DNA of 64,000 nucleotides from Gammaproteobacteria bacterium (GTDB lineage Bacteria > Pseudomonadota > Gammaproteobacteria > SG8-11). This document shows, in pieces, positions 4,265 to 35,751 of the stretch (position 1 is its first letter; each line of letters begins with the position of its first letter). The notes beneath the pieces were generated by a model, which saw nothing but the letters and a program-made list of their open reading frames with translations, had not been told where the DNA came from and ran no database searches. The DNA lies in contig JANLTU010000245.1 in NCBI GenBank assembly GCA_031363085.1, positions 8,500 through 72,499 on the forward strand, given 5' to 3'. The position numbers were made by a program, and so were the translations under genes.

Positions 4265-6530
4265 GTTCCGGTTTCTCCAATAACGTTGTGATGTCTTGAC
4301 CGACGCTCGCCAGTCCTTTTAGTTCCAACTGCAGCATGAACGAATTTTGCAGGGTGGGAGTTTGTGTGGTGCTAGGCAGTACATAACCGTGCGAGACCGC
4401 GCGCAGCGCCCAACAACAGCCATCATACTCCAGACCGGCGATCCACTCTTTATCGCGTGAATCGAGCAGCGAGTAATTGCGGCGGGCGATTAAATTCCAG
4501 TTCGGCAATAACGGCCAGACTACCGAAGCATCGAGTTCCTGCTGGGTGAGTTTTCCAGTGGCCGGATCGCGGTTTAAACGCACGCCGAAATTCATGATCC
4601 TGCGCTTGTGCGGTTGGTAGCGCAGCAGCAAGTTCGCTTGGGTATAGGCCGCCAACGCGTTATTCCACTGCGCCGTCGCGCTGATGTCCAGATAATGCAG
4701 CGGATGCGCGCGCAGCTCGCCGACGATGTCGGAACGCGGCGCGGTATCGGCGCGGGCGCCCGGCGCAACACCCGGCATCGTGACTTCGCGATCACGCAGG
4801 TAGTAAATTCGGCCAACACTCGCGCTCAGTCGTTCGACCCCGGCAGGATCCAGCACCCGCGTGGTCAGCGCGAGACTAAACTGGTTGGCGTCACCGAAGC
4901 GGTCGCCACCCGCGAAACGATTTTCGGCGAACAGTTGCGCGTAACTCAGCCCGCTTAAACCGCAATCGAAACACAGCTCGTTACGCACGCTGCCGTCGAC
5001 CAGCAAGCGCTTTTGGTCACGATAGGGCACGTACAAATAATACAAGCGCGACTCCAGGGTCTGCACAAAGCCGCGCGCGTTAACGTCAAGATCGCGCTCA
5101 AAGCTCAAGCCACTGTCGGTACTGAAGACTGCTAACGTGCGCGTGGGATCATCTGCGGTATCGGTTGCCTGTCGCGTCAACGCATATTGGGTGTGGTGTA
5201 TGCCCAGCTTGGGTCGCAGATATCCCGCCACGCCTTCGATGGGGTAACTCACACTCGGATACAGGGTCACGCGCGTACCGGACACCTTGGTCGGGCGATC
5301 AAAACGCACGGCATCGGCGCTGAGCTGCGGACGCAGGCCAAGGTAATCAGCCTGCGGCTGTGTTTGCAGCGTGAGCTGGGGCAGGATTTTGTAAGGCCGC
5401 GCGTTCTCGATAATGCTGTCGTCCAGCGTTTGGAAATCGATCACTGCCGCCTGCGCAGTCAACCGCTCGCCACGATAACTGAGGCGCGCATTCCGTTCCA
5501 GGTGTACGGTCGCTGCGGTACTCAGACGGTCACCAAAATTAGCAAAGTAATCTTTGTCGGATGCGTACCGGTAATTCAATTCGCTGGTCCATGCGGGTGC
5601 CGGCGACGCGTGGTGGGCATACGCGACATAGCTGCGATCTGCGCCCGCGATTTTGTCCTGCGGCAGATATTCGAAGTTGAGCTGTCCTCCGGAACGCGGA
5701 TTGAGATAGCGAAACTCACCCAGCAGTTGCTGTCCACGCGCGGAGAAATTCTGCACGGTGAAAGTCGCATCGCGGTCCGGCGCGATATTCCAATAAAACG
5801 GCTGTGCCACACGGATGCCGGAGCGCCCGGAACGGCCGAAAGTTGGGAACAACAAGCCTGATTTACGCCCCGCCAACGGAAAATTCAGGTACGGAAAATA
5901 CACAAACGGCACGCTCATGAAATCGATCCACACCTGCGTTGCGGTGCCGATGTTGTCGGCGGTATTTAATATCAAGCTCCCGGCATGCAAACGCCAGACA
6001 TCGTTCTGTTGGTCGCAGGTGGTGTACGTCGTGTGTTGCAAGGTGGTTTGGGTTTTGCTGTCGATCACGATGCGCGCAGCGTCGCCGCGCGCATGACCTT
6101 GCTTCAGAAAAAAGCGCGCGCGTTCGATGACGCCGCGCTCGTGCTCCAAGGAAAATTGCGCCCGCTCGCCCGACAACAGCAGATCGTTTTGCCAAATATT
6201 GACATTACCGCTGGCATCAACATCGGTATGCGCATTGCGGTACGCCACATGATCACCCTGCAACCACTGTGCGCCGCGCTGCAAGGTCACACCACCCGTG
6301 AACGAATACGTCTTCTCGACCTCGCCCTCGACCTGGCTGTTATCGGCGATCACGCGGGTGGTTTGGCCGTCATCGCCCGCCGGAATGGCGAACGGCAACT
6401 GCGGCATCACCACGAATTCGGCCGCACACTGACTGAAAGGCGGATCGCTCGGCAAAATTTCAGCATGTGCAGGGAGCACGGTGGCACCCACCATCGCAAC
6501 CAGGAAAAAGCAGCCAGAGCGAGTGCGCAT
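4245..6530 (-). CDS. lptD: LPS-assembly protein LptD
   Basis: YTTC, RKSGLLFP, PFYWNIAPDRDAT, EYDGCCW, QLELKGL motifs; 761 aa with signal peptide. Confidence 0.96.
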   Translation of the reverse strand: MRTRSGCFFLVAMVGATVLPAHAEILPSDPPFSQCAAEFVVMPQLPFAIPAGDDGQTTRVIADNSQVEGEVEKTYSFTGGVTLQRGAQWLQGDHVAYRNAHTDVDASGNVNIWQNDLLLSGERAQFSLEHERGVIERARFFLKQGHARGDAARIVIDSKTQTTLQHTTYTTCDQQNDVWRLHAGSLILNTADNIGTATQVWIDFMSVPFVYFPYLNFPLAGRKSGLLFPTFGRSGRSGIRVAQPFYWNIAPDRDATFTVQNFSARGQQLLGEFRYLNPRSGGQLNFEYLPQDKIAGADRSYVAYAHHASPAPAWTSELNYRYASDKDYFANFGDRLSTAATVHLERNARLSYRGERLTAQAAVIDFQTLDDSIIENARPYKILPQLTLQTQPQADYLGLRPQLSADAVRFDRPTKVSGTRVTLYPSVSYPIEGVAGYLRPKLGIHHTQYALTRQATDTADDPTRTLAVFSTDSGLSFERDLDVNARGFVQTLESRLYYLYVPYRDQKRLLVDGSVRNELCFDCGLSGLSYAQLFAENRFAGGDRFGDANQFSLALTTRVLDPAGVERLSASVGRIYYLRDREVTMPGVAPGARADTAPRSDIVGELRAHPLHYLDISATAQWNNALAAYTQANLLLRYQPHKRRIMNFGVRLNRDPATGKLTQQELDASVVWPLLPNWNLIARRNYSLLDSRDKEWIAGLEYDGCCWALRAVSHGYVLPSTTQTPTLQNSFMLQLELKGLASVGQDITTLLEKPEHGIAGY

Positions 6531-24771: not shown

Positions 24772-25467
24772 CTATTCCACCCGCTCACCGAAGATCGCCG
24801 TGCCCACCCGTACCAGGGTTGAGCCTTCGGCAATCGCAGCTTCCAGGTCGTCCGACATGCCCATCGATAAAGTGTCAAGCTCATGGCCCGCATGACATAA
24901 CTGTTGATACAGTTCACGCAACATCCGAAATCCAGCACGCTGCTGCTCGAATTCGGCCTGCGCTGCCGGGATCGTCATCAACCCACGCAAGCGCAAGCGC
25001 GGCAAGCCGCGCAGTGTATGTGCCAGCGCCGCGACCTCCGCCACGCGCACGCCCGACTTGCTGGTCTCGCCGCTCACATTCACTTGAATGCAGACATTCA
25101 GCGGCGGCAGCATCGCCGGTCGCTGCGCATGTAGGCGTTGCGCAATTTTGTCGCGCTCGACACTGTGCACCCAGGCGAAGTGGGTTGCGACCGCGCGCGT
25201 TTTGTTCGACTGCAACGGTCCGATAAAATGCCAGTCGAGCGGCAAGTCGGTGACCGCGCTGATCTTTACCAGCGCCTCTTGCAAGTAGCTTTCGCCGAAG
25301 CGCCGTTGGCCCGCCGCATACGCAGCGCGGATCGCCGTTGCCGGATGGGTTTTGCTGACGGCGAGCAAATCCACCGCACCCGGTGCGCGGCCGAAGCGTT
25401 GTTCGGCCTGCGCGATGCGCGCGCGAACCGCAGCAAGGTGTTGGGCGATGGTGTTCGAGTTAATCAA
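24772..25467 (-). CDS. yggS: PLP homeostasis protein YggS
   Basis: LLAVSKT, FGESYLQE, WHFIGPLQSNK, LSMGMSDD, VRVGTAIFG; start reset to TTG 25467; divergent from pilT. Confidence 0.95.
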   Translation of the reverse strand: MINSNTIAQHLAAVRARIAQAEQRFGRAPGAVDLLAVSKTHPATAIRAAYAAGQRRFGESYLQEALVKISAVTDLPLDWHFIGPLQSNKTRAVATHFAWVHSVERDKIAQRLHAQRPAMLPPLNVCIQVNVSGETSKSGVRVAEVAALAHTLRGLPRLRLRGLMTIPAAQAEFEQQRAGFRMLRELYQQLCHAGHELDTLSMGMSDDLEAAIAEGSTLVRVGTAIFGERVE

Positions 25468-25557
25468 GAGGTGTCCGGGTGCCGTTATAGCGGGAGGTGG
25501 TCGAACCTGCCGCTGTTTGGGCAGCCTGCAAGTACAGAACACGATTATAGGTGACCG

Positions 25558-26595
25558 ATGGATATCGCAGAACTCCTGGCCTTCAGTGTTAAGAACGGTG
25601 CTTCCGATTTGCACCTGTCGGCGGGTGTGCCGCCGATGATTCGCGTCGACGGCGACATGCGCCGCATCAATCTGCCGGCGCTGGATCACAAGACCGTGCA
25701 CGGCTTGATTTACGACATCATGAACGACAAGCAGCGCAAGGACTACGAAGAATTTCTGGAAACCGATTTCTCGTTCGAGATTCCCAGTCTGGCGCGTTTT
25801 CGCGTGAACGCATTCAACCAGAATCGCGGCGCAGGCGCGGTGTTTCGCACCATTCCCACCAACATTCTTACGCTCGAAGAACTCGGCTGTCCGGCGGTAT
25901 TCAAGGAGATTGCCAAGAATCCGCGCGGGCTGGTGCTGGTGACCGGGCCGACCGGTTCGGGCAAATCGACCACGTTGGCGGCGATGGTGAACTTCGTCAA
26001 CGAGAGTGATTACGCGCATATCTTGACCATTGAAGACCCAATTGAATTCGTGCACGAAAGCAAAAAATGTCTGGTCAACCAGCGCGAGGTGCACCGCGAC
26101 ACGCTCGGTTTCGCTGAATCACTGCGCTCGGCCTTGCGCGAAGATCCCGATATCATTCTGGTCGGTGAAATGCGCGACCCGGAAACCATTGGTCTGGCGC
26201 TGACGGCGTCCGAAACCGGTCACTTGGTGTTCGGCACTTTGCACACCAGTTCGGCGGCGAAAACGGTGGACCGCATCATTGACGTGTTCCCGGCGGCGGA
26301 AAAAGAAATGGTGCGCTCGATGCTGTCGGAATCGATGCGCGCGGTGATTTCGCAGACGCTATTGAAAAAAGCCAGCGGCGGCCGCGTGGCCGCGCACGAA
26401 ATCATGGTCGGCACGCCGGCGATTCGTAACCTGATTCGCGAAAACAAAATTCCGCAAATGTATTCGGCGATCCAGACCGGGCAACAATACGGCATGCAAA
26501 CGCTGGATCAGAATCTGGCCGAGCTGGTGAAGAAAGGCGCGGTCAGCAAACAAGAGGCACGCACCAAGGCGGCGAACAAAGATTCCTTTAACTAG
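25558..26595 (+). CDS. pilT: Type IV pilus retraction ATPase PilT
   Basis: ASDLHLSAG, GPTGSGKST, TIEDPIE, AIRNLIRE motif. Confidence 0.98.
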   Translation: MDIAELLAFSVKNGASDLHLSAGVPPMIRVDGDMRRINLPALDHKTVHGLIYDIMNDKQRKDYEEFLETDFSFEIPSLARFRVNAFNQNRGAGAVFRTIPTNILTLEELGCPAVFKEIAKNPRGLVLVTGPTGSGKSTTLAAMVNFVNESDYAHILTIEDPIEFVHESKKCLVNQREVHRDTLGFAESLRSALREDPDIILVGEMRDPETIGLALTASETGHLVFGTLHTSSAAKTVDRIIDVFPAAEKEMVRSMLSESMRAVISQTLLKKASGGRVAAHEIMVGTPAIRNLIRENKIPQMYSAIQTGQQYGMQTLDQNLAELVKKGAVSKQEARTKAANKDSFN

Positions 26596-26688: not shown

Positions 26689-27828
26689 ATGAATAACGTC
26701 GAAGACTTCCACGCCTTGCTGCGCGCCATGGTCGAGAAGCAGGCATCCGACCTGTTCCTCACCGCCGGCCTGCCGCCGTGTTTGAAAGTTCACGGCAGTC
26801 TGCTGCCGATTGGTATTGAAACGCTCAGCCCCCATCAAGTGCGCGCGCTGGCGTATCAAATCATGAACGACGATCAACGCCACGAATTCGAAACCACCCA
26901 GGAATGTAATTTCGCGCTGTCGGACCCCAGCATCGGCCGCTTTCGCGTCAACGTGTTCGTGCAGAAATACCAAGTCGGCATGGTGCTGCGCAAAATCGAA
27001 ACTAGAATCCCAACGCTCGCCGATTTGCGCGCACCGCCGACGCTCGCTGAGCTGGCGATGAGCAAGCGCGGCTTGATCGTGATCGTCGGCGCCACCGGTT
27101 CGGGTAAGTCCACCACACTGGCGGCCATGATCGGCCACCGCAACCAGAACAGCAGCGGCCACATCATCACCATCGAAGACCCGATTGAGTTCATTCACGA
27201 ACATGTCGGCTGTGTGATCACGCAACGCGAAGTTGGCGTCGACACGCAGTCGTTTGAAAGCGCACTGAAGAACACGCTACGCCAAGCGCCGGATGTCATT
27301 TTGATCGGCGAAATCCGCACTCGCGAGACCATGTCGCACGCGATTGCATTTACCGAGACCGGACACCTGTGTTTTGCAACGCTGCATGCCAACAACGCCA
27401 ACCAAGCGTTGGACCGCATCGTCAACTTCTTCCCCGACGACCGCCGCAACCAATTGCTGCTGGATTTATCGCTCAATCTCAAGGCCGTGGTCGCCCAACA
27501 ACTGGTGCCCACGCCAGATCGTCAGGGCCGCCGCCTCGCGCTGGAAATTTTACTCAACACACCGCTGATGGCGCAGCTCATCCACAAGGGTGAATTCCAC
27601 AAACTCAAGGAAGTGATGAAGAAATCCACCACCCTGGGCATGCAGACCTTCGATCAGGCGCTGCTGCAACTGTACGAAGCCGCAGAAATTTCCTATGACG
27701 ACGCCCTGCACCACGCCGACGCGCCCAACGAGCTGCGCTTATTAGTCAAGCTCGGCAAAGACGGTGGCATCGACAAGCTGCAATCGGCGCTGGACGGAAT
27801 GGAGTTGATTGAGCCGCGCCGCACTTGA
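26689..27828 (+). CDS. pilU: Type IV pilus retraction ATPase PilU
   Basis: ASDLFLTAG, GATGSGKST, HANNANQALDRI, GMQTFDQAL; follows pilT. Confidence 0.93.
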   Translation: MNNVEDFHALLRAMVEKQASDLFLTAGLPPCLKVHGSLLPIGIETLSPHQVRALAYQIMNDDQRHEFETTQECNFALSDPSIGRFRVNVFVQKYQVGMVLRKIETRIPTLADLRAPPTLAELAMSKRGLIVIVGATGSGKSTTLAAMIGHRNQNSSGHIITIEDPIEFIHEHVGCVITQREVGVDTQSFESALKNTLRQAPDVILIGEIRTRETMSHAIAFTETGHLCFATLHANNANQALDRIVNFFPDDRRNQLLLDLSLNLKAVVAQQLVPTPDRQGRRLALEILLNTPLMAQLIHKGEFHKLKEVMKKSTTLGMQTFDQALLQLYEAAEISYDDALHHADAPNELRLLVKLGKDGGIDKLQSALDGMELIEPRRT

Positions 27829-27863
27829 TTTTACGACGAGTGCGGTCCCCTTGAGGCATGGGG

Positions 27864-28316
27864 TTAGGTGTCGTCGGTGCCCAGCGCCACGAATTCGCCT
27901 TCGAGCTGACCGGCAACTTGCCCGGCGTATTCGACAACGCAGGATACCGTGATTCTCGCCCGACCTTTGCGTTTCAACATGCGTGTGAATGACTCCCAGG
28001 CGGCTTCAGTCGCGATGAACGAACGCGCGGTGAACGTGCCCGAGATCGGCAGTGCGTAATGCATGGAGTTGCGCTGAATCACCAGGCGACTTGAAATACT
28101 CAAGCTCGCGAGACGTGTGTGGAGCAGTGACCACGCCGCCAAAATTGCTACCGCTGAGGCACTCCCGCCAAAGACCGTGTCGCGATGATTGATATTGGCA
28201 GCCAAGGGTGCGCTGAGCGTGACGCCTTCGGGTTGCACGCTGACAACCGAAACCTGCATCGCCTTGGACAGCGGGATGTGGTCGTATAAATATTTCTCAA
28301 GTTCGATGCAGTTCAT
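27864..28316 (-). CDS. YiiD C-terminal-type hotdog thioesterase
   Basis: IPLSKAM, APLAANINHRDTVFGGS, GKARI-like KGRARI. Confidence 0.85.
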   Translation of the reverse strand: MNCIELEKYLYDHIPLSKAMQVSVVSVQPEGVTLSAPLAANINHRDTVFGGSASAVAILAAWSLLHTRLASLSISSRLVIQRNSMHYALPISGTFTARSFIATEAAWESFTRMLKRKGRARITVSCVVEYAGQVAGQLEGEFVALGTDDT

Positions 28317-28383
28317 GATGACTCGCTTTGGCCCACAGGATGGGAAAAGGTTGCCTGCGTCGACCCGTCATCGACTTCAAGCG

Positions 28384-28451
28384 GCGCAGCGCTGTGTCCG
28401 CCCTGATCCCACGTACTAAATCGTGGGTTGTCGTGATCGCGAAACAACGCT
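28384..28451 (-). pseudogene. Relics of an older higB-higA toxin-antitoxin pair
   Basis: 28418-28451 encodes ALFRDHDNPRF (intact HigB: ALFRDQDNMRF, 33405-33438); 28384-28413 encodes RGIRADTALR (intact HigA: RGITADTALR, 33004-33033). Confidence 0.75.
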
Positions 28452-28460
28452 CAGAAGCTT

Positions 28461-28529
28461 TTAGCCGAAAACCGCTGACACATCAAACACCGGTCCATCT
28501 ACACACACCTGTTTCATCGCCACACCGGC
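28461..28529 (-). repeat. Third, displaced copy of the pyrK 3' end
   Basis: Encodes AGVAMKQVCVDGPVFDVSAVFG*, versus TGVYMKRVCVDGPVFDAQAVFS* in the intact gene. Confidence 0.88.
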
Positions 28530-28632
28530 GATTTGTAACCTGATTTGCGAAAACAAAATTCCGCTTATCGTCAGGGTCGCCCCCTCCTCGCGCTGGGAAT
28601 TTTACTCAGCTCACCGCTCGTGGCGCAGCTCA
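28521..28632 (+). pseudogene. Relics of duplicated pilT and pilU
   Basis: 28521-28564 matches pilT 26412-26455 at 41/44 nt; 28567-28632 matches pilU 27518-27580 with a 3-nt insertion and substitutions. Confidence 0.88.
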
Positions 28633-28665
28633 GCGGCGGCAAGCCATGCTCAGAAATAATCTGCT

Positions 28666-28682
28666 TTTAATGTTGAGTTAAC
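28666..28682 (+). promoter_or_regulatory. Possible QseB/PmrA-type binding box upstream of the multicopper oxidase
   Basis: TTTAAT-GTTGA-GTTAAC: TTAA direct repeat with 11-bp period. Confidence 0.4.
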
Positions 28683-28797
28683 TTGGACCCAAACCCACAA
28701 GTGTTATCAATGGCTTGCTTCACGTAAACCCTTAGACAGTAGATGCAAATCTGCGACCGGGGCGTGAGGCTATTTTCAACTCTATATAGGTGGGGCC

Positions 28798-30660
28798 ATG
28801 CAGAAAGTCAGAAATTCAAGTGCGGGAATTGCGCTGTTGGTTGTTACAGCGCAGGCATTTCCCGTGTTCGCCGCAGTTCCTTTGGACCCGTTGACGATTC
28901 CTAAATTCGTTACGCCGTTCGAGGTGCCACCGGCGTTCACGCCGATGCTATTGACCGATCCGGTGACGGGAGCAGTCACGAGTCATCTATACCAGATCAG
29001 TGTCACACAGTTTCAGCAACAGGTGCTGCCAGCCGGATTCCCCCAGACAACGGTGTGGGGCTATGGCGGAAACATGGTAGACGCCGCAGGTGTCAAGACC
29101 TACTACCAGCACTTCCCCGCCGCGACCATTAGCGCGACGCGTGGCGTTCCGGTCAATGTTCAGTGGGTGAACAATTTGGTGGACCCTGTTACCGGCGCGC
29201 CGCTTCCGCATTTATTTCCGGTCGACCCGACCCTGCATTGGGCCAATCCGAACAACATGGGCATGCCCATGCCGCCGTTCGCGCCTGAATACTTGGCGGC
29301 GCAGTCGCCGGTGCCCATCGTGACGCATTTGCACGGCGGCGAAGTGGAATCCGCCAGCGATGGAAATACGCAAGCGTGGTTTACGCCGAATCAGGTTTTG
29401 ACTGGGCCGTCGTTTGTGAAATCCCTTTATACCTATCCCAACACACAACCGGCAGCAACGTTGTGGTATCACGACCACACGCTTGGGATTACGCGTCAAA
29501 ACGTGTACGCGGGTCTGGCGGGTTTTTATCTGCTGCGCGATCCGGCCGATGTACTCGCCGCGCAATTGCCGTCCGGGAACTACGACGTTCCGCTCGTCAT
29601 TCAGGACCGTCTGTTCAACACCGACGGCTCACTGAATTTTCCCAGCGTTGGCGTGAATCCGGATATCCACCCGTATTGGTCGCCGGAAACATTCGGCAAC
29701 ACCATCGTCGTTAATGGCAAGACCTGGCCCAACATGAACGTGGAACGCCGCGCCTACCGGTTTCGTCTGTTGAACGGTTCCAATGCGCGGGTTTTCACAC
29801 TGTCGTTGTCCAATGGTAGATGGTTTACCCAGATTGCCTCCGACGGCGGTTATCTACCCGTACCTGCAAGACTGTCGTCGCTGACGCTCGCTCCCGGCGA
29901 GCGCGCCGAAGTCATCATTGATTTCTCTACCATGAATCCCGGCAGAATCATCGTTCGCAATAGCGCTGCTGCGCCGTTTCCTATTGGTGTAGCTGCCGAT
30001 CCGCTGACCGTCGGGCAAGTTATGCAGTTCACGGCGTTGCCCGGCAAGGCCGCAGGTACAAAGATTCCGGCGGTCTTGAATAGGATGCCTGCGCTTACCG
30101 CCAACGCGCCGACGCGCACGCTGACCTTGAACGAAGCGATGGGCCCACTCGGACCGGTTGCGGTGCTGTTGAACGGCCAGATGTATGACAGCGCCATTTC
30201 TGAGTTGCCGCGCGTGGGCGCTACCGAAATCTGGGAAGTCGTTAACACAACGGTGGATATGCATCCCATCCATCTGCATTTAGTGCAATTCCAGGTGCTC
30301 AACCGTCAAGCTTACAATACCGTTGGCTATGCCGCCGCGTGGGATGCCCTGAACGGTGGCGGCATGTTGCCGTTGATGACGCCGACCGTGCCTCTGTCGC
30401 CAGCCGCCTATCTGTTGGGGCCAGTCCAGCTTCCGGCGGCCTCCGAGCGCGGCTGGAAAGACACGGTCCGCATGAATCCTGGCGAAGTGACACGCATCAT
30501 GGTGCGTTATGCGCCGGTTGAGGCGCCAGTGGCGACAACTGTACCGGGTGTGAATCTCTACGCATTCAATCCAAGTGTCGGCCCGGGCTACGTGTGGCAT
30601 TGCCATATCCTGGATCATGAAGACAACGAGATGATGCGGCCGCTGCAAGTTTTGCCGTAA
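28798..30660 (+). CDS. Secreted multicopper oxidase (CotA / bilirubin oxidase-like)
   Basis: Copper motifs THLHG, WYHDH, HPIHLH, WHCHILDHEDNEM; N-terminal signal peptide. Confidence 0.93.
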   Translation: MQKVRNSSAGIALLVVTAQAFPVFAAVPLDPLTIPKFVTPFEVPPAFTPMLLTDPVTGAVTSHLYQISVTQFQQQVLPAGFPQTTVWGYGGNMVDAAGVKTYYQHFPAATISATRGVPVNVQWVNNLVDPVTGAPLPHLFPVDPTLHWANPNNMGMPMPPFAPEYLAAQSPVPIVTHLHGGEVESASDGNTQAWFTPNQVLTGPSFVKSLYTYPNTQPAATLWYHDHTLGITRQNVYAGLAGFYLLRDPADVLAAQLPSGNYDVPLVIQDRLFNTDGSLNFPSVGVNPDIHPYWSPETFGNTIVVNGKTWPNMNVERRAYRFRLLNGSNARVFTLSLSNGRWFTQIASDGGYLPVPARLSSLTLAPGERAEVIIDFSTMNPGRIIVRNSAAAPFPIGVAADPLTVGQVMQFTALPGKAAGTKIPAVLNRMPALTANAPTRTLTLNEAMGPLGPVAVLLNGQMYDSAISELPRVGATEIWEVVNTTVDMHPIHLHLVQFQVLNRQAYNTVGYAAAWDALNGGGMLPLMTPTVPLSPAAYLLGPVQLPAASERGWKDTVRMNPGEVTRIMVRYAPVEAPVATTVPGVNLYAFNPSVGPGYVWHCHILDHEDNEMMRPLQVLP

Positions 30661-30687
30661 CATTGCAGTGCCGAAGTTGATTTATCC

Positions 30688-30720
30688 ATGGGCCACGCTA
30701 ACGTGGCCCATTTTCTTTTT
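30688..30720 (+). terminator. Rho-independent terminator
   Basis: ATGGGCCACG-CTAA-CGTGGCCCAT followed by TTTCTTTTT. Confidence 0.85.
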
Positions 30721-30730
30721 GGGGGTGTAG

Positions 30731-31384
30731 ATGCGTATCTTGGTCGTGGAAGACGACGAGGCGCTGGGGAATGGTGTGCAGACCTGGTTACGTCTCAAAG
30801 GGTACTCCGTCGATTTATTCCGCGACGGTCATGCTGCGCAACAGGCGCTGAAAGCCGTCGCTTACCGCCTAGTGATTTTGGATCTTGGCCTGCCCACCAT
30901 GGACGGTCTGACCTTGCTGCGTTGGATACGGGATCGTGCCGACCTGACACCGGTGATGGTGATCACTGCGCGTGACACATTAAAAGATCGTCTGCGTGGT
31001 CTGGACGGCGGTGCCGATGACTACTTGGTGAAGCCCTTCGAAATGGAAGAGCTTGCCGCGCGTATCCGCGCGCTGGAGCGTCGACTTAACCAGCGCGCCA
31101 GCCCGCTGCTGTGTCACGGCCCGGTGGTACTGGACCCCGCCGCGATGACCGTAGCGCTGGACGGCGCGAAGCTGAACGTCTCGCGCCGCGAGTTCGTGGT
31201 GTTGCGCGAGTTGCTTGAAAACAAGGGGAAACCGGTGTCACGCGATCAACTTGATCACCTGCTCTATGCCTGGGGCGAAGAGGTTGAAAGCAACACCGTC
31301 AGTGTTCACATTCACAATCTGCGCAAGAAACTCGGTGAGAATTTTATCGTTACCCGGCGCGGGTTCGGTTACCTCGTGGTGTAA
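30731..31384 (+). CDS. OmpR-family response regulator (QseB/PmrA-like)
   Basis: MRILVVEDD, LDLGLP, GADDYLVKPF, ESNTVSVHIHNLRKKL. Confidence 0.93.
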   Translation: MRILVVEDDEALGNGVQTWLRLKGYSVDLFRDGHAAQQALKAVAYRLVILDLGLPTMDGLTLLRWIRDRADLTPVMVITARDTLKDRLRGLDGGADDYLVKPFEMEELAARIRALERRLNQRASPLLCHGPVVLDPAAMTVALDGAKLNVSRREFVVLRELLENKGKPVSRDQLDHLLYAWGEEVESNTVSVHIHNLRKKLGENFIVTRRGFGYLVV

Positions 31385-31387
31385 CTC

Positions 31388-32782
31388 ATGCACGTTTCGC
31401 TGCGGCGCCGCTTCCTGACAGTAATGCTGTCTGTGTTCTCAATGGCATGGATCGCCGCAACGGCTGGAATTTATCTCGACAGTTTTCACGAAACTGCGGA
31501 ATTGTTGGACGCGGAATTGCGGCGCACGGCCAGTGTCGTTATGGGAATGAGCCTGCACGAGTTGGAGGAGGAGCTGTTGTCGCGCGGTACCCGCACGCTA
31601 GACATCGCAGGATATGAAAATGTGGTCACCAGCGCTGAGGCGAAGATCGCGTTCCAGGTCTGGCTCGCCAACGGCCAGTTGGCGGTGCGTACCGATAACG
31701 CGCCGCTCACTCCGTTGCCCAGCACGACCGGCGGGTTTGTCGATTCCGCCGTAGGCAACGAATATTGGCGTGTCTACGCGTTGGTCGATGCACGTACCGG
31801 GATTACCGTTCGGGTGGGCGAGCATGAGAGCGTGCGCCATAAAATGTCGAGCGATGTCGCTTTTCGCACGGTGCTGTCGCTGATGGTAATCGTGCCCATC
31901 ATCGGATTGATGACGTGGATCGGCGTTGGCCGCGCAATGGAACCGCTGGGCCGCCTGACCGATCAGGTCGCACGCCGACAGCCCCACGACTTCAGTGCGG
32001 TCGGCCTCAAGGGTTCGCCGCGCGAGATCGAACCGTTAATCAACGCGCTGAACCGGTTGTTCACCTGCCTGAAACTGGCGTTCGAAAATACGCGTCGTTT
32101 CACCGCCGACGCCGCGCACGAACTGCGTACCCCGTTGAGCGCGATGGCGGTGCAAACCGACGTGGCGATACTGGCGACGGATGAGGAAGTGCGTGCTACA
32201 GCATTGAATTATTTGAAGAAATCGATTCGCGACATGACGCAATTAGTGCATCAATTGCTGACCCTCGCGCGCTGGGACGGCAATGTGATCGACCTGCACC
32301 GATGCCTCCTGAATCTTGCCGAGACCGTGCACGCGGTTGTGAGTAAACTGGAAGATCAGGCGCGTGCGCGGGATATCCGCCTTACTGTGACTGTCAGTGC
32401 CGAACCATTGCTGCTGGCGGATGAAACGGCCATCCATCTGGTGGTGCGCAATCTGCTCGACAACGCCATTCGCTATACCCCGGTCGGTGGCCAAGTGAGC
32501 GTGGAGGTTAATGTGGTCGCCGGATACGCTACGCTGCACGTGGCAGACACCGGGCCGGGCATTGCCCCGGAACAGCGTGAGCGGTTATTTCAGCGTTTTT
32601 ACCGCGCAGGACGCAGCGACGGCGGGGGTAGCGGGCTAGGTCTTTCGATCACGCAGCGCTGTATCGAACTGCATCAGGGTACTATCGAAATTGACAGCGC
32701 CGACGGTGGTGGGTTGGCCGTGACGGTGTATCTGCCGCTGCCAAAAACAGGAATCGGCGGACGTCCTTCAGCGAAATCCTGA
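31388..32782 (+). CDS. Sensor histidine kinase (QseC/PmrB-like)
   Basis: Two TM segments, EIFDAQL-like ELLDAEL, H-box ADAAHELRTPL, NLLDNAIRY, DTGPG, GSGLGL. Confidence 0.93.
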   Translation: MHVSLRRRFLTVMLSVFSMAWIAATAGIYLDSFHETAELLDAELRRTASVVMGMSLHELEEELLSRGTRTLDIAGYENVVTSAEAKIAFQVWLANGQLAVRTDNAPLTPLPSTTGGFVDSAVGNEYWRVYALVDARTGITVRVGEHESVRHKMSSDVAFRTVLSLMVIVPIIGLMTWIGVGRAMEPLGRLTDQVARRQPHDFSAVGLKGSPREIEPLINALNRLFTCLKLAFENTRRFTADAAHELRTPLSAMAVQTDVAILATDEEVRATALNYLKKSIRDMTQLVHQLLTLARWDGNVIDLHRCLLNLAETVHAVVSKLEDQARARDIRLTVTVSAEPLLLADETAIHLVVRNLLDNAIRYTPVGGQVSVEVNVVAGYATLHVADTGPGIAPEQRERLFQRFYRAGRSDGGGSGLGLSITQRCIELHQGTIEIDSADGGGLAVTVYLPLPKTGIGGRPSAKS

Positions 32783-32790
32783 AGTAGCGC

Positions 32791-32874
32791 TCACGAAAAT
32801 ACGCTGGCCGCATCAAACACCGGCCCATCCACACACACGCGCTTCATCGCCGCTTCGTGCTCGGTCTTGACTTC
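32791..32874 (-). repeat. Second, displaced copy of the pyrK 3' end (84 bp)
   Basis: Encodes EVKTEHEAAMKRVCVDGPVFDAASVFS*, same length as 33548-33631 (EVKTDTGVYMKRVCVDGPVFDAQAVFS*). Confidence 0.92.
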
Positions 32875-32877
32875 AAG

Positions 32878-33183
32878 TTAGGCTGCGTGACGATGTACAC
32901 GCTTCTCCACTTCCGCACCCACCGTGCGCTGGGCCAAGCGCAAGTCATAATCCGCCTGGAGTCCCATCCAAACTTCGGGTGATACGCCAAAGTATTTTCC
33001 CAGACGTAATGCCGTATCTGCCGTGATTCCACGCTTTCCGTTCACAATGGCGCTGATGCGCCCCGGCGGCACCACGATCTCGCGCGCCAAGCGGTTGATG
33101 CTGATGTCCATCGGCTGCATGAATTCTTCGAAAAGAATCTCACCGGGGTGGATTGGAGTAAGTAGTTTTGATTTAGCTGCCAT
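32878..33183 (-). CDS. higA: HigA-family antitoxin
   Basis: PIHPGEILFEEF, RGITADTALRL, WMGLQADYDL. Confidence 0.93.
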   Translation of the reverse strand: MAAKSKLLTPIHPGEILFEEFMQPMDISINRLAREIVVPPGRISAIVNGKRGITADTALRLGKYFGVSPEVWMGLQADYDLRLAQRTVGAEVEKRVHRHAA

Positions 33184-33191
33184 AGTTCACC

Positions 33192-33470
33192 TTAGTGGTA
33201 ATCGACTATTTCGACGTCGTAAGCATCTCCATCCTTCCAGCTAAAGCAAAGACGCCATTGGTCGTTGACGCGAACACTGTATTGTCCTTTGCGGTTGGCT
33301 TTAAGTGCTTCTAGACGGTTTCCCGGTGGTGCGCGCAGATCGTCCAGCACTTTTGCGCGATGCAGATACAGCAATTTGCGGCGTGCAACGCGTTCGATTG
33401 CTCGAAACCGCATATTGTCCTGATCGCGAAACAACGCTTCGGTATCGCTACAATTGAAGGATCGGATCAT
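33192..33470 (-). CDS. higB: HigB (RelE-family) toxin
   Basis: MIRSF, DLRAPPGNRLEAL, GQYSVRVNDQWR, C-terminal EIVDYH; toxin-first gene order. Confidence 0.93.
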   Translation of the reverse strand: MIRSFNCSDTEALFRDQDNMRFRAIERVARRKLLYLHRAKVLDDLRAPPGNRLEALKANRKGQYSVRVNDQWRLCFSWKDGDAYDVEIVDYH

Positions 33471-33483
33471 GATTGAGGTAGAC

Positions 33484-33508
33484 TATGACGCGCTGCGTAA
33501 TATGTAAA
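33484..33508 (-). promoter_or_regulatory. higBA promoter with HigA-type operator
   Basis: Imperfect palindrome TATGACGC-GCT-GCGTAATA next to a minus-strand TTTACA. Confidence 0.55.
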
Positions 33509-33547
33509 GCGATCTAGTCTATATTCCGGCTAGGAGATATGCCACAG

Positions 33548-34423
33548 TCAGCTAAAGACTGCCTGCGCATCAAACACCGGCCCATCCACACACACACGCT
33601 TCATGTACACACCGGTATCGGTCTTGACTTCTACGGTGCAACCCGCACAACCGCCAACGGCGCAGGCCATGAATTCTTCCAGCGATACTTGGCAGGGCAA
33701 GGCAAATTCGCCGGCCAGTTTAGCGGTGGCGTGCAGCATTGGGTGTGGGCCGCAGGCGAAGATTTCCACTTCGTTGCGTTGCGCGGGGGTCAGCGTGTTA
33801 AGCCAAGCGCGTGCGACATCGGTGACGTAGCCGTCGAAACAGCCGGGGTAATTTTGTTGGCTGGCGAGGCGGCTTGCGATGCCCCAGTCTTCCATTAACG
33901 GCATCGCGGCGATGACGCCGGGCGGCATGCCGGGCACGATGATATGCGAGGGCCGCGTGGTGAACGGGAACGGCACTTCCGAGCCCATGATGACGAATGG
34001 CTTGTAAGTTTTATCGGTGCGCAGATGCTCGGCCAGAAATACCATCGGTGGTATGCCGACGCCGCCACCGATCAGCAATGCGCGCGGCCGTTCGAGGTGC
34101 GGTGTGAACGGTACGCCGATGGGGCCAAGAATTGACAAACTCTCGCCGATTTTGCGCGTTGCGAGCAAGCGCGTGCCCTCGCCCAGGACTTTGTACAGAA
34201 AATCCACCCAGCCTTCCTGCGTGCTCACGCGCATGATCGACAGCGGCCGCCGCATCGGCAGCATGTCAGCGCAGCGGATGTGCACAAAGCTGCCCGGCTG
34301 CGCGCGCGCAGCGACACGCGGTGCATGGACACGCAACACGTATTGATCACCCGGATGCGCGCTGTGCGCGAGGATGTGCGCGTCGTCTTCGAGGCAGATG
34401 CTGTTGCGGTGGGGTTGGTTCAT
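33548..34423 (-). CDS. pyrK: Dihydroorotate dehydrogenase electron-transfer subunit (PyrK-like)
   Basis: RRPLSI, GGGVGIPP, ACGP, EEFMACAVGGCAGC..CVDGPVF [2Fe-2S] motif; start reset to ATG 34423. Confidence 0.88.
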   Translation of the reverse strand: MNQPHRNSICLEDDAHILAHSAHPGDQYVLRVHAPRVAARAQPGSFVHIRCADMLPMRRPLSIMRVSTQEGWVDFLYKVLGEGTRLLATRKIGESLSILGPIGVPFTPHLERPRALLIGGGVGIPPMVFLAEHLRTDKTYKPFVIMGSEVPFPFTTRPSHIIVPGMPPGVIAAMPLMEDWGIASRLASQQNYPGCFDGYVTDVARAWLNTLTPAQRNEVEIFACGPHPMLHATAKLAGEFALPCQVSLEEFMACAVGGCAGCTVEVKTDTGVYMKRVCVDGPVFDAQAVFS

Positions 34424-34450
34424 GACTTGTGCTCCGGCGGGTTTCGCACC

Positions 34451-34474
34451 AGGGTGCGGCAAGCAGCGCCCTAC
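34451..34474 (-). repeat. REP-like palindrome
   Basis: Minus strand GTAGGGCGCTGCTTGCCGCACCCT: GTAG tetranucleotide followed by a GC stem. Confidence 0.5.
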
Positions 34475-34476
34475 GT

Positions 34477-35751
34477 TTAATTTTGAAAGACGATGCGGCC
34501 GCCGACCAGCGTGTAACACACGCGCCCCTGTAATTCCCAGCCGCTAAAGGGGGTGTTGCGTCCTTGGCTGACGAGCTGGGTTTCGCTCACGGTCCAAAAC
34601 GCGTGCGGATCGTAGATACACAGGTCGGCGGCGACGCCGATGTTCAGCGTGCCGGCGTTGATGCCCAGAATCTTGGCGGGGCCGTAGGTTATGCGGTTGA
34701 TGAGGTCGCTGAGTCGCATGCCGGCTTCTTCGCCCGCGCGCAGACTCAGCGGCAACAAGGTTTCGAGCGCCGAGATACCGGGTTCGGTTTCGGCGAACGG
34801 CGCCAGTTTGGCGTCGGCGTCGTGCGGCTGGTGGTCGGAGCAGATCGCCGCGAGCGTGCCGCGCAAAAGTCCGGTGAGCAAGCCGGCACGATCACGCGCA
34901 CTGCGCAGTGGGGGCCGGATGTGACAATGGGTATTGAAGTCGGCGACGTCCATGTCGGTGAGGTGCAAATGGTGGGCGGTGACGTCGGTGCTGATCGGCA
35001 CGCCGTCGTATTGCACGCGTGCCACCATCTGCACCGCGCGCGCGGTCGACAGATTGCCGAAGTGGGCGCGCACGCCAGTCTGCTGGATCAGCAGCAGGTC
35101 GCGGCCCACCGCAACGGTCTCGGCGGTTTCCGGAATTCCGGTCAAGCCCAGGCGCACGCTCACCGCGCTTTCGTGCATCACGCCACCACCCAGCCAGGGA
35201 TCTTCGCTATGCAAAAATACCGTGAGATCGAGGCTCGCGGCGTATTCCAGCGCGCGGCGCATGACCTGGGTGTCGGTGATCGCATGGAGCGCGTTGCTGA
35301 CGCCGACGCAGCCGGCTTGTTTGAGCGCGTGCATTTCGGAAAGCTGCGTGCCCTGCAAGCCTTGCGTCAACGCACCTAATGTCACAACCCGCGCCTTGCC
35401 GGCAAGTCCAGCGCGGTGATGAATCAGATCGGCGACCGCCGGGTTGTCGATCACCGGGTCGGTGTCGGGCGGGCAGCACAGCGTGGTCACACCGCCCGCC
35501 ACCGCAGCCGCGCATTCGCTGGCGATGGTGCCTTTGTGTTCGTGGCCCGGTTCACGGGGACGCGCGCGCAAGTCCACTAGCCCGGGGCACAGCACCAAGC
35601 CGGCCGCTTCAATGACGTGTTCGGCGGCAAAACCCAGCGGCGCATGCAGCACGCCGGCGATGCGGCCGTCGGCAATCCACACGTCGCCGAGCTGGTCGAT
35701 TTGATTGGCCGGGTCGACGACGCGGGCACCGCGAATATGGATGCGTTTCAC
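34477..35751 (-). CDS. pyrC: Dihydroorotase-like protein, probably the inactive PyrC' partner of ATCase
   Basis: Amidohydrolase fold (PGLVDL..REPG, SDHQPH), but the metal-binding HxH is replaced by RAR. Confidence 0.88.

Follow-up and report, generated by a model that had tools for sequence, protein, structure and literature searches.

RESULTS

Relics of five neighbouring genes in a spacer

In this work, we have analysed a window of 64 000 nucleotides (nt) from a gammaproteobacterial genome (4.31 Mb in 266 contigs), and within it a segment of 249 nt (positions 28384-28632) that is made of small relics of pilT, pilU, higA, higB and a pyrK-like gene. The segment lies within a 481-nt spacer separating two divergent genes, one for a yiiD-like thioesterase and the other for a multicopper oxidase. 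We propose, at a probability of roughly 0.7 and on the evidence of the sequence, that it is non-functional debris, the head-to-tail seam of two versions of one variable locus. The intact counterparts of the relics stand on both sides of it. To the left are pilT (25558-26595, plus strand; Pfam T2SSE, E 1.5e-53) and pilU (26689-27828, plus strand; also T2SSE), and to the right, on the minus strand, higA (32878-33183; TIGR02607, 109.5 bits), higB (33192-33470; PF05015) and the gene of a pyrK-like FAD/NAD/Fe-S protein (33548-34519; PF10418), which is upstream of a dihydroorotase gene.

The region 28320-28680 was compared with the rest of the window by blastn-short, and five plus/plus matches were found well above background, the next best having an E value of 1.1. 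They fall in pilT (26416-26455, 38/40 identical, E 1e-12), in pilU (27534-27580, 42/47, E 1e-9), in higB (33415-33438, 23/24, E 2e-5), in the 3' end of the pyrK-like gene (33568-33595, 26/28, E 2e-5) and in an additional copy of that end (32811-32851, 36/41, E 5e-6). The same query against the whole genome found five places, all of them local, at E <= 0.0013 (next E 0.39), and no copies elsewhere. When the relic was shuffled 200 times with its dinucleotides preserved, the highest score was 32.2 bits and no match came to 36 bits or more, against observed scores of 63.9, 54.0, 42.1, 40.1 and 40.1 bits. For the higA segment, 9 of 10 residues agree with the intact gene, and none of 2000 shuffles exceeded 7 of 10. 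The five relic calls of a first-pass annotation made from the letters alone were thus upheld by BLASTN, by extended alignments and by shuffled controls, which the relic alignments surpass by far.

In the extended alignments, the higA relic (28384-28413, minus strand) covers antitoxin residues 51-60 with 21/30 nt identical, encodes RGIRADTALR as previously read, and has 7 of its 9 differences at third codon positions, the bias already ascribed to it; it looks like a piece of a diverged allele. The higB relic (28418-28451, minus strand) corresponds to toxin residues 11-21, again with the peptide first reported, ALFRDHDNPRF; 28/34 nt are identical (23/24 in its core) and 4 of the 6 differences are at third positions. 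The third island, which we call tip k (28461-28528, minus strand), is a displaced 3' end of the pyrK-like gene, apparently also of a diverged allele. It comprises 21-22 codons, open and in frame up to its own stop codon, which is retained at 28461-28463, and 9 of its 16 differences from the resident gene (50/66 identical) are at third positions. The pilT relic (28517-28564, plus strand) covers approximately residues 285-299 and matches the resident gene (gene positions 851-898, 26408-26455) at 44/48 nt. Its differences fall at codon positions 2, 3, 1 and 1 and include two Arg-to-Cys changes; over the 44 nt first aligned, the count of 41 identical with three transitions proved correct. Finally, the pilU relic (28567-28632, plus strand; approximately residues 277-297) matches the resident gene (27518-27580) at 56/63 gene positions with one 3-nt insertion, and its ungapped 54-nt part carries 7 differences, 1 of them at a third position. 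Both plus-strand relics look like decayed copies.

The relic higA-higB is not an intact pair: 30 and 34 nt are left of the two genes, and the higB start with the 109 nt upstream of it is reduced to 9 nt. Two open reading frames (ORFs) of 71 codons (28328-28543) and 76 codons (28189-28419) were considered as genes and rejected, as they belong to no Pfam family and span the relic joints. This is a caution for annotators, since short open frames within such scars are not genes.

Order of the islands, junction and deletions

The islands follow each other as higA, higB, pyrK end and then pilT, pilU, each on the same strand as its intact counterpart. They had been described as standing in the order of the source loci; their order is in fact a cyclic permutation of the present one, which runs pilT, pilU ... 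higA, higB, pyrK. In two genomes of the same genus, G001 and G005, the genes pilT, pilU, higA(-), higB(-), pyrK(-) and dihydroorotase(-) form one run. Because these relatives hold pilT-pilU-higA-higB-pyrK as a contiguous unit, we read the relic as a single place where two copies of this unit were joined head to tail.

The junction itself can be placed in the sequence. Homology to pyrK extends through 28528 and homology to pilT starts by 28521, possibly at 28517, so that the two overlap by 8 nt, CACRCCGG (28521-28528), common to the pyrK tip and the pilT fragment. The overlap agrees with resident pilT at 7 of 8 positions, and pilT and the pyrK genes of G001 and G005 agree with each other at all 8. 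From these letters, we interpret 28521-28528 as the microhomology joint of an illegitimate junction; the extent of the pyrK piece and the point where the pilT piece starts, gene position 851, would then have been set by the junction itself. The earlier view that the islands were reduced from whole genes thus holds in part, the pyrK and pilT pieces having probably been truncated at the 8-nt microhomology.

The sequence implied on the two sides is about 2.16 kb long, 738 nt for higA, higB and 68 nt of pyrK, and 1421 nt from pilT position 851 to the pilU stop; 249 nt are now left of it. Of the 371 nt expected between the islands of higA and higB, 4 nt are left; the 109 nt between higB and the pyrK stop have shrunk to 9 nt, and the 1062 nt between the islands of pilT and pilU to 2 nt. 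Also missing are 126 nt from the 3' end of higA and 248 nt from the end of pilU. At least five deletions would have produced the present relic. Serial deletion of redundant copies, as the first-pass annotation had it, agrees with these figures; its collapse of an old pyrK-higBA unit and a second pilT-pilU unit, taken as two unrelated units, does not, since the pieces read as the two sides of one junction.

Two patterns of divergence

The relics on the two sides of the joint differ from the resident genes in different ways. Taken together, the higA, higB and pyrK relics have 31 differences in 130 positions (24%), of which 20 are at third positions (binomial p 4e-4). Those of pilT and pilU together show 11 in 102 (11%) and one indel, with 2 of the 11 at third positions and with several other replacements besides the two Arg-to-Cys changes. 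The two sets differ both in the amount of divergence (Fisher p 0.010) and in its position bias (Fisher p 0.013), so the contrast first seen between a diverged higA and a near-identical pilT is real. The pilU relic is 87% identical to its own genome's pilU, 80% to that of G001 and 78% to that of G005, and for tip k the identity is much the same, 76-79%, whether with the resident gene or with those of G001, G005 and another genus. The third-position bias and the clean pyrK frame, set against the replacement-type changes in pilT and pilU, point to two separate histories: the higA, higB and pyrK relics appear to come from alleles that diverged while functional, and the pilT and pilU relics to be decayed copies of near-identical, resident-type genes.

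Could the same picture have come from a plain tandem duplication of the resident unit within this lineage, if yiiD and the oxidase cluster had then been inserted separately, one into each copy, and deletions had set in afterwards? This account, the closest to that of the first-pass annotation, explains the head-to-tail order and the microhomology junction equally well, and the pilT and pilU relics do resemble decayed resident copies. Copies made in one event should, however, have diverged equally, and what is seen is 24% with a third-position bias on one side and 11% of neutral appearance on the other. A single duplication on its own would be excluded, because the neutral relics have diverged less than the synonymous sites in the relics beside them. 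Tip k is no nearer to the resident gene than to those of other species (49-51/66 with G005 and G001), and the account further needs an allelic replacement of higBA-pyrK and two independent insertions at the same spot. We consider it unlikely, though it is the strongest of the alternatives. The unequal divergence does not fit a plain duplication of resident DNA and favours the joining of two haplotypes.

The divergence bears also on a patchwork filler, laid down by serial template switching in one repair event (microhomology-mediated break-induced replication). The islands are short (30-66 nt), their sources lie within 6 kb and on one strand, and at least one joint shows microhomology, all of which such a filler would share. 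Its copies would nevertheless begin identical to their templates, and the divergence of the higA and pyrK pieces is 24-30%, with a synonymous-type bias, the pyrK piece moreover retaining its reading frame and stop. The islands are also collinear with the ancestral unit, as predicted by deletions and not by template jumps. We regard this origin as very improbable.

A third pyrK 3' end

A second displaced 3' tip of the pyrK-like gene, k-prime, which had escaped the first-pass annotation, is found at 32791-32875 on the minus strand. It has 28 codons, in frame and with their own stop, and it lies 8 nt from the stop of the histidine kinase gene, its upstream edge abutting the higA stop. It is identical to the resident end at 50/68 positions and to tip k at 47/68. 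With it, the window has a stack of three pyrK 3' ends, all in frame, oriented alike and closed by a stop codon, mutually identical at 45-51 of 65-68 positions and all retaining VCVDGPVFD. Where k-prime meets the higA flank, the letters CTTC agree with the native flank of G005; four bases are weak evidence. Our reading is that k-prime may mark a second, older junction of the same kind: the oxidase cluster would once have stood directly against the pyrK of another allele, and an earlier illegitimate event would have joined it to the higA flank.

The pilU-pyrK gap in relatives

The order pilT-pilU and then, on the opposite strand, higA-higB-pyrK is accompanied in relatives by different genes after pilU. 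In G001, 4 nt separate the stops of pilU and higA, and a gene of 172 residues resembling a TonB C-terminus follows pilU in G005 (L020 4930-5448). In more distant relatives, pilT, with or without pilU, is convergent with pyrK and the intervening genes differ, with a TonB-like gene in G003, a hybrid kinase in G006 and nothing in G009. Since the genes between pilU and pyrK differ in this way, the gap can be taken as a variable cargo slot. In contigs of runs X5 and X7, the end of pilU (27818-27821) runs straight into higA (at 33084 or 32867), so that the simple arrangement is also present in sister populations of the same habitats. The intact genes themselves are close to those of relatives: pilT is 98-99% identical in amino acids to G001 and G005, and higA and higB, orthologues of the G001/G005 pair, are 94-95% and 92% identical to relatives. 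A sliding-window comparison of pilT-pilU with G005 and G001 gave no mosaic break; pilU is native-like to its stop codon, and both outer flanks look native.

Some details of these relatives were noted in passing. About 180 nt of the TonB-like gene of G005 are 83% identical to a gene some 6 kb downstream on the same contig (L020 11125-11425), which makes it another copy of a nearby gene within the pilU slot. Before the higA stop of G005 (L020 approximately 5413-5458) there is a possible copy of a pilU 3' end, 31/46 identical without gaps and about 28/35 in its core; its E value is above 0.01, and it gives only a hint of a similar scar in a relative. The toxin gene seems to be impaired in relatives: the G005 higB (L020 5790-6064) matches as two overlapping pieces, which suggests a frameshift or a small duplication. 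In one X5 contig, 33192-33547, with all of higB, is replaced by 26 other letters and the higA match starts at 33084.

We looked for the cargo genes elsewhere. No yiiD was found in the five other genomes of the genus that were searched, and no close orthologue of the multicopper oxidase (E <= 1e-140 or stricter) in 11 other genomes of the order or in 399 other sampled genomes of the class. The best yiiD homologues elsewhere are 75-77% identical; in metagenome contigs, the protein found 80 loci at 77% identity or less. Among 80 genome loci with a yiiD homologue (at most 75% identical), none has higA, higB, pyrK, pilT, pilU or the oxidase within 6 kb, and the less-eroded intermediates expected from an old collapse were absent from these loci.

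The relic is real DNA

The relic has been assembled more than once, in contigs built separately from public sequencing runs. One X1 contig of 6627 nt covers 27163-33789 with 4 differences and even depth, an X3 contig of 1505 nt covers 27163-28667 with 3 differences, and an X5 contig of 1320 nt, from another study, covers 28130-29449 with 33 differences and 4 gaps. The relic is real DNA, common to a strain about 2.5% diverged. A chimeric contig built from related metagenome strains might have been feared in a 266-contig assembly, when related strains with the simpler arrangement occur in the same habitats. Separately assembled contigs of three runs and two studies reproduce the stretch, however, one of them from 27163 to 33789 at even depth, and assemblers do not make diverged in-frame gene fragments; the chance of an artefact is negligible. 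Among the differences listed, the X1 and X3 contigs read G at 28455, and the X1, X3 and X5 contigs read C at 28546, as in resident pilT.

A possible antisense RNA

The first-pass annotation had also proposed that a transcript through the relic could act as a composite antisense RNA. Were the relics co-opted in this way, the minus-strand leader of yiiD, for example, would be antisense to the mRNAs of pilT and pilU, or a plus-strand transcript to those of higA, higB and pyrK, and would regulate them. The complementarity exists by construction, at 44/48 positions for pilT and 56/63 for pilU, the relic is likely to be at least partly transcribed because it lies between divergent genes, and the region is retained in the strain about 2.5% diverged. 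Such retention is, however, expected from descent alone, and in the islands of pilT and pilU the changes look random and of replacement type, with an indel in addition. We found no Rfam match to the relic at E <= 1, no consensus promoter- or terminator-like site inside 28384-28632 in a scan for both, and no folding of either strand better than that of shuffles (z -1.02 and -0.70). Regulation by a co-opted relic is thus most doubtful. A related possibility, that the relics were used to build the control region lying between the divergent yiiD and oxidase genes, with a leader (28632-28517) antisense to pilT/pilU mRNA, seems hardly more likely; if true, stretches of 48 and 66 nt would couple the new cargo to expression of the twitching-motility ATPase.

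Other features around the relic

The yiiD-like gene (27864-28316, minus strand) matches PF09500 (E 9e-43) and TIGR02447 (140.5 bits, cut-off 97.1). Between it and the relic are 67 nt (28317-28383) with no homology detectable nearby by BLASTN or alignment, and the 165 nt between the relic and the oxidase gene (28633-28797) have no homology to the neighbouring genes. The cargo block (28798-32782, plus strand) consists of the multicopper oxidase gene (28798-30660), a response regulator and a histidine kinase, all identified with Pfam. Three further multicopper oxidase paralogues of the genome, on contigs C119 (two of them adjacent) and C36, are 48-49% identical to the copy in the window. We use the label pyrK-like because PF10418 and the dihydroorotase neighbour (530.5 bits in NCBIfam, cut-off 442) are what supports the name, while the NCBIfam pyrK models match the gene below their cut-offs (134.5 against 314). 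An ORF of 440 codons (24772-26094, minus strand) for a YggS-like pyridoxal phosphate protein overlaps pilT; the Pfam match is confined to its residues 219-437 and the version to which relatives align has 232 residues, so the start of the long ORF is spurious.

DISCUSSION

We propose that the genus has a conserved frame, pilT-pilU followed by higA-higB-pyrK on the opposite strand, with a slot for cargo after pilU, and that two haplotypes of this locus were joined. Haplotype one would have carried the yiiD-like thioesterase gene with its own diverged higA, higB and pyrK 3' end, and haplotype two the oxidase, the response regulator, the kinase and the older pyrK tip, followed by the genus-typical higA-higB-pyrK. 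Through an illegitimate, unequal crossover at CACRCCGG, the pyrK of haplotype one may have been fused, by its final 66-68 nt, to the pilT of haplotype two at position 851. In the product, an intact pilT-pilU would have stood to the left, an intact higBA-pyrK to the right and, between them, a redundant higBA, a pilT fragment and a second pilU. There would thus have been two higBA pairs and two pilU genes after the event, one of each being later lost piecemeal as at least five deletions trimmed the redundant 2.2 kb or so to islands of 30-66 nt. We take as the most likely process a one-sided homologous recombination with an illegitimate second join, upon uptake of DNA from a close relative; its route could be homology-facilitated illegitimate recombination (HFIR) or a single crossover of a circularised fragment.

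How does this seam compare with known systems? Tandem duplication junctions form at microhomologies, the end of a segment being joined to its start at a few shared bases. The end of one unit is likewise joined here head-to-tail to the start of the next, but the joined copies are not identical, one side having diverged alleles, and the two sides are not equally diverged. In decaying genomes such as those of Rickettsia and Mycobacterium leprae, successive deletions leave gene remnants between genes. The islands described here resemble these remnants in being short, recognisable pieces of former genes in DNA that would no longer be under selection. In contrast to such genomes, only the redundant copies from one rearrangement seem to decay, in a genome otherwise ordinary-looking, and the history can be read directly because the intact originals are only 1-5 kb away.

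In HFIR (PMC3240628), one joint lies in homologous sequence and the other is illegitimate, typically with a micro-homology of 3-10 bp, and products are known in the transformable bacteria Streptococcus pneumoniae, Acinetobacter baylyi and Pseudomonas stutzeri. Laboratory HFIR usually deletes recipient DNA of similar size, and the duplications seen in that work came from single crossovers of circular molecules. As in HFIR, new DNA lies here beside a conserved flank, with an illegitimate joint at 7-8 nt of microhomology, and DNA foreign to the genus (yiiD and the oxidase) is next to the joint.

Several points weigh against the seam of two haplotypes or its proposed route. In contrast to the usual laboratory product of HFIR, the ancestral unit is complete, and about 1.4 kb of pilT-pilU were duplicated. 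The statistics of divergence rest on 42 differences in short islands, and the pilT relic, 88-92% identical to all alleles, can be assigned to no lineage. Neither parental haplotype turned up among the yiiD loci or in the oxidase searches of order and class, and the GC profile has no clear foreign signature. Relics of flanking genes were found in none of the slots of six relatives at E <= 0.01, which gives no support for a recurrence of the process. The duplication without loss makes the integration of a circularised fragment an equally good route, and the duplication would better fit such a single crossover, as seen in PMC3240628, or an unequal exchange, than HFIR.

The displaced tips have parallels in polymorphic toxin loci. 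For type VI secretion system arrays, Kirchberger et al. propose the same process, in which every incoming module displaces the 3' end before it and leaves orphan genes, and link it to the 'C-terminal displacement' of Rhs (PMC5361080). The 3' ends in the window (33548-, 32791-32875 and 28461-28528), displaced in the same orientation, resemble those of effector-immunity, Rhs and contact-dependent inhibition arrays, where a gene with an unchanging 5' part has downstream of it the older tips pushed back by successive modules. Unlike the genes of those arrays, the pyrK-like gene encodes a housekeeping-type oxidoreductase and no polymorphic toxin, its tips of 22-28 codons have no variable domain, and no selection for diversity is evident at them.

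A seam with gene relics is a known kind of feature, and the present one is an unusually readable case. Laboratory work has dealt at length with the traces that illegitimate or one-sided recombination leaves, and natural genomes rarely show them so clearly. For one event we have here the intact genes and their relics, the joint with its microhomology and, in relatives, the gene order of the ancestor. As a worked example it is useful, and it opens no new question. There is a small chance that the locus is, besides, an integrase-free site at which cargo is stacked in nature through one-sided recombination, the displaced pyrK tips being the log of the events. The stacked, displaced 3' ends of the housekeeping-type pyrK-like gene show a pattern mostly known from polymorphic toxin loci. 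With no integrase or transposase in sight, it can be read how an uncultured sediment bacterium may have gained a thioesterase gene and a copper-oxidase/two-component cluster, and likewise how the redundancy made by the event may have been removed.

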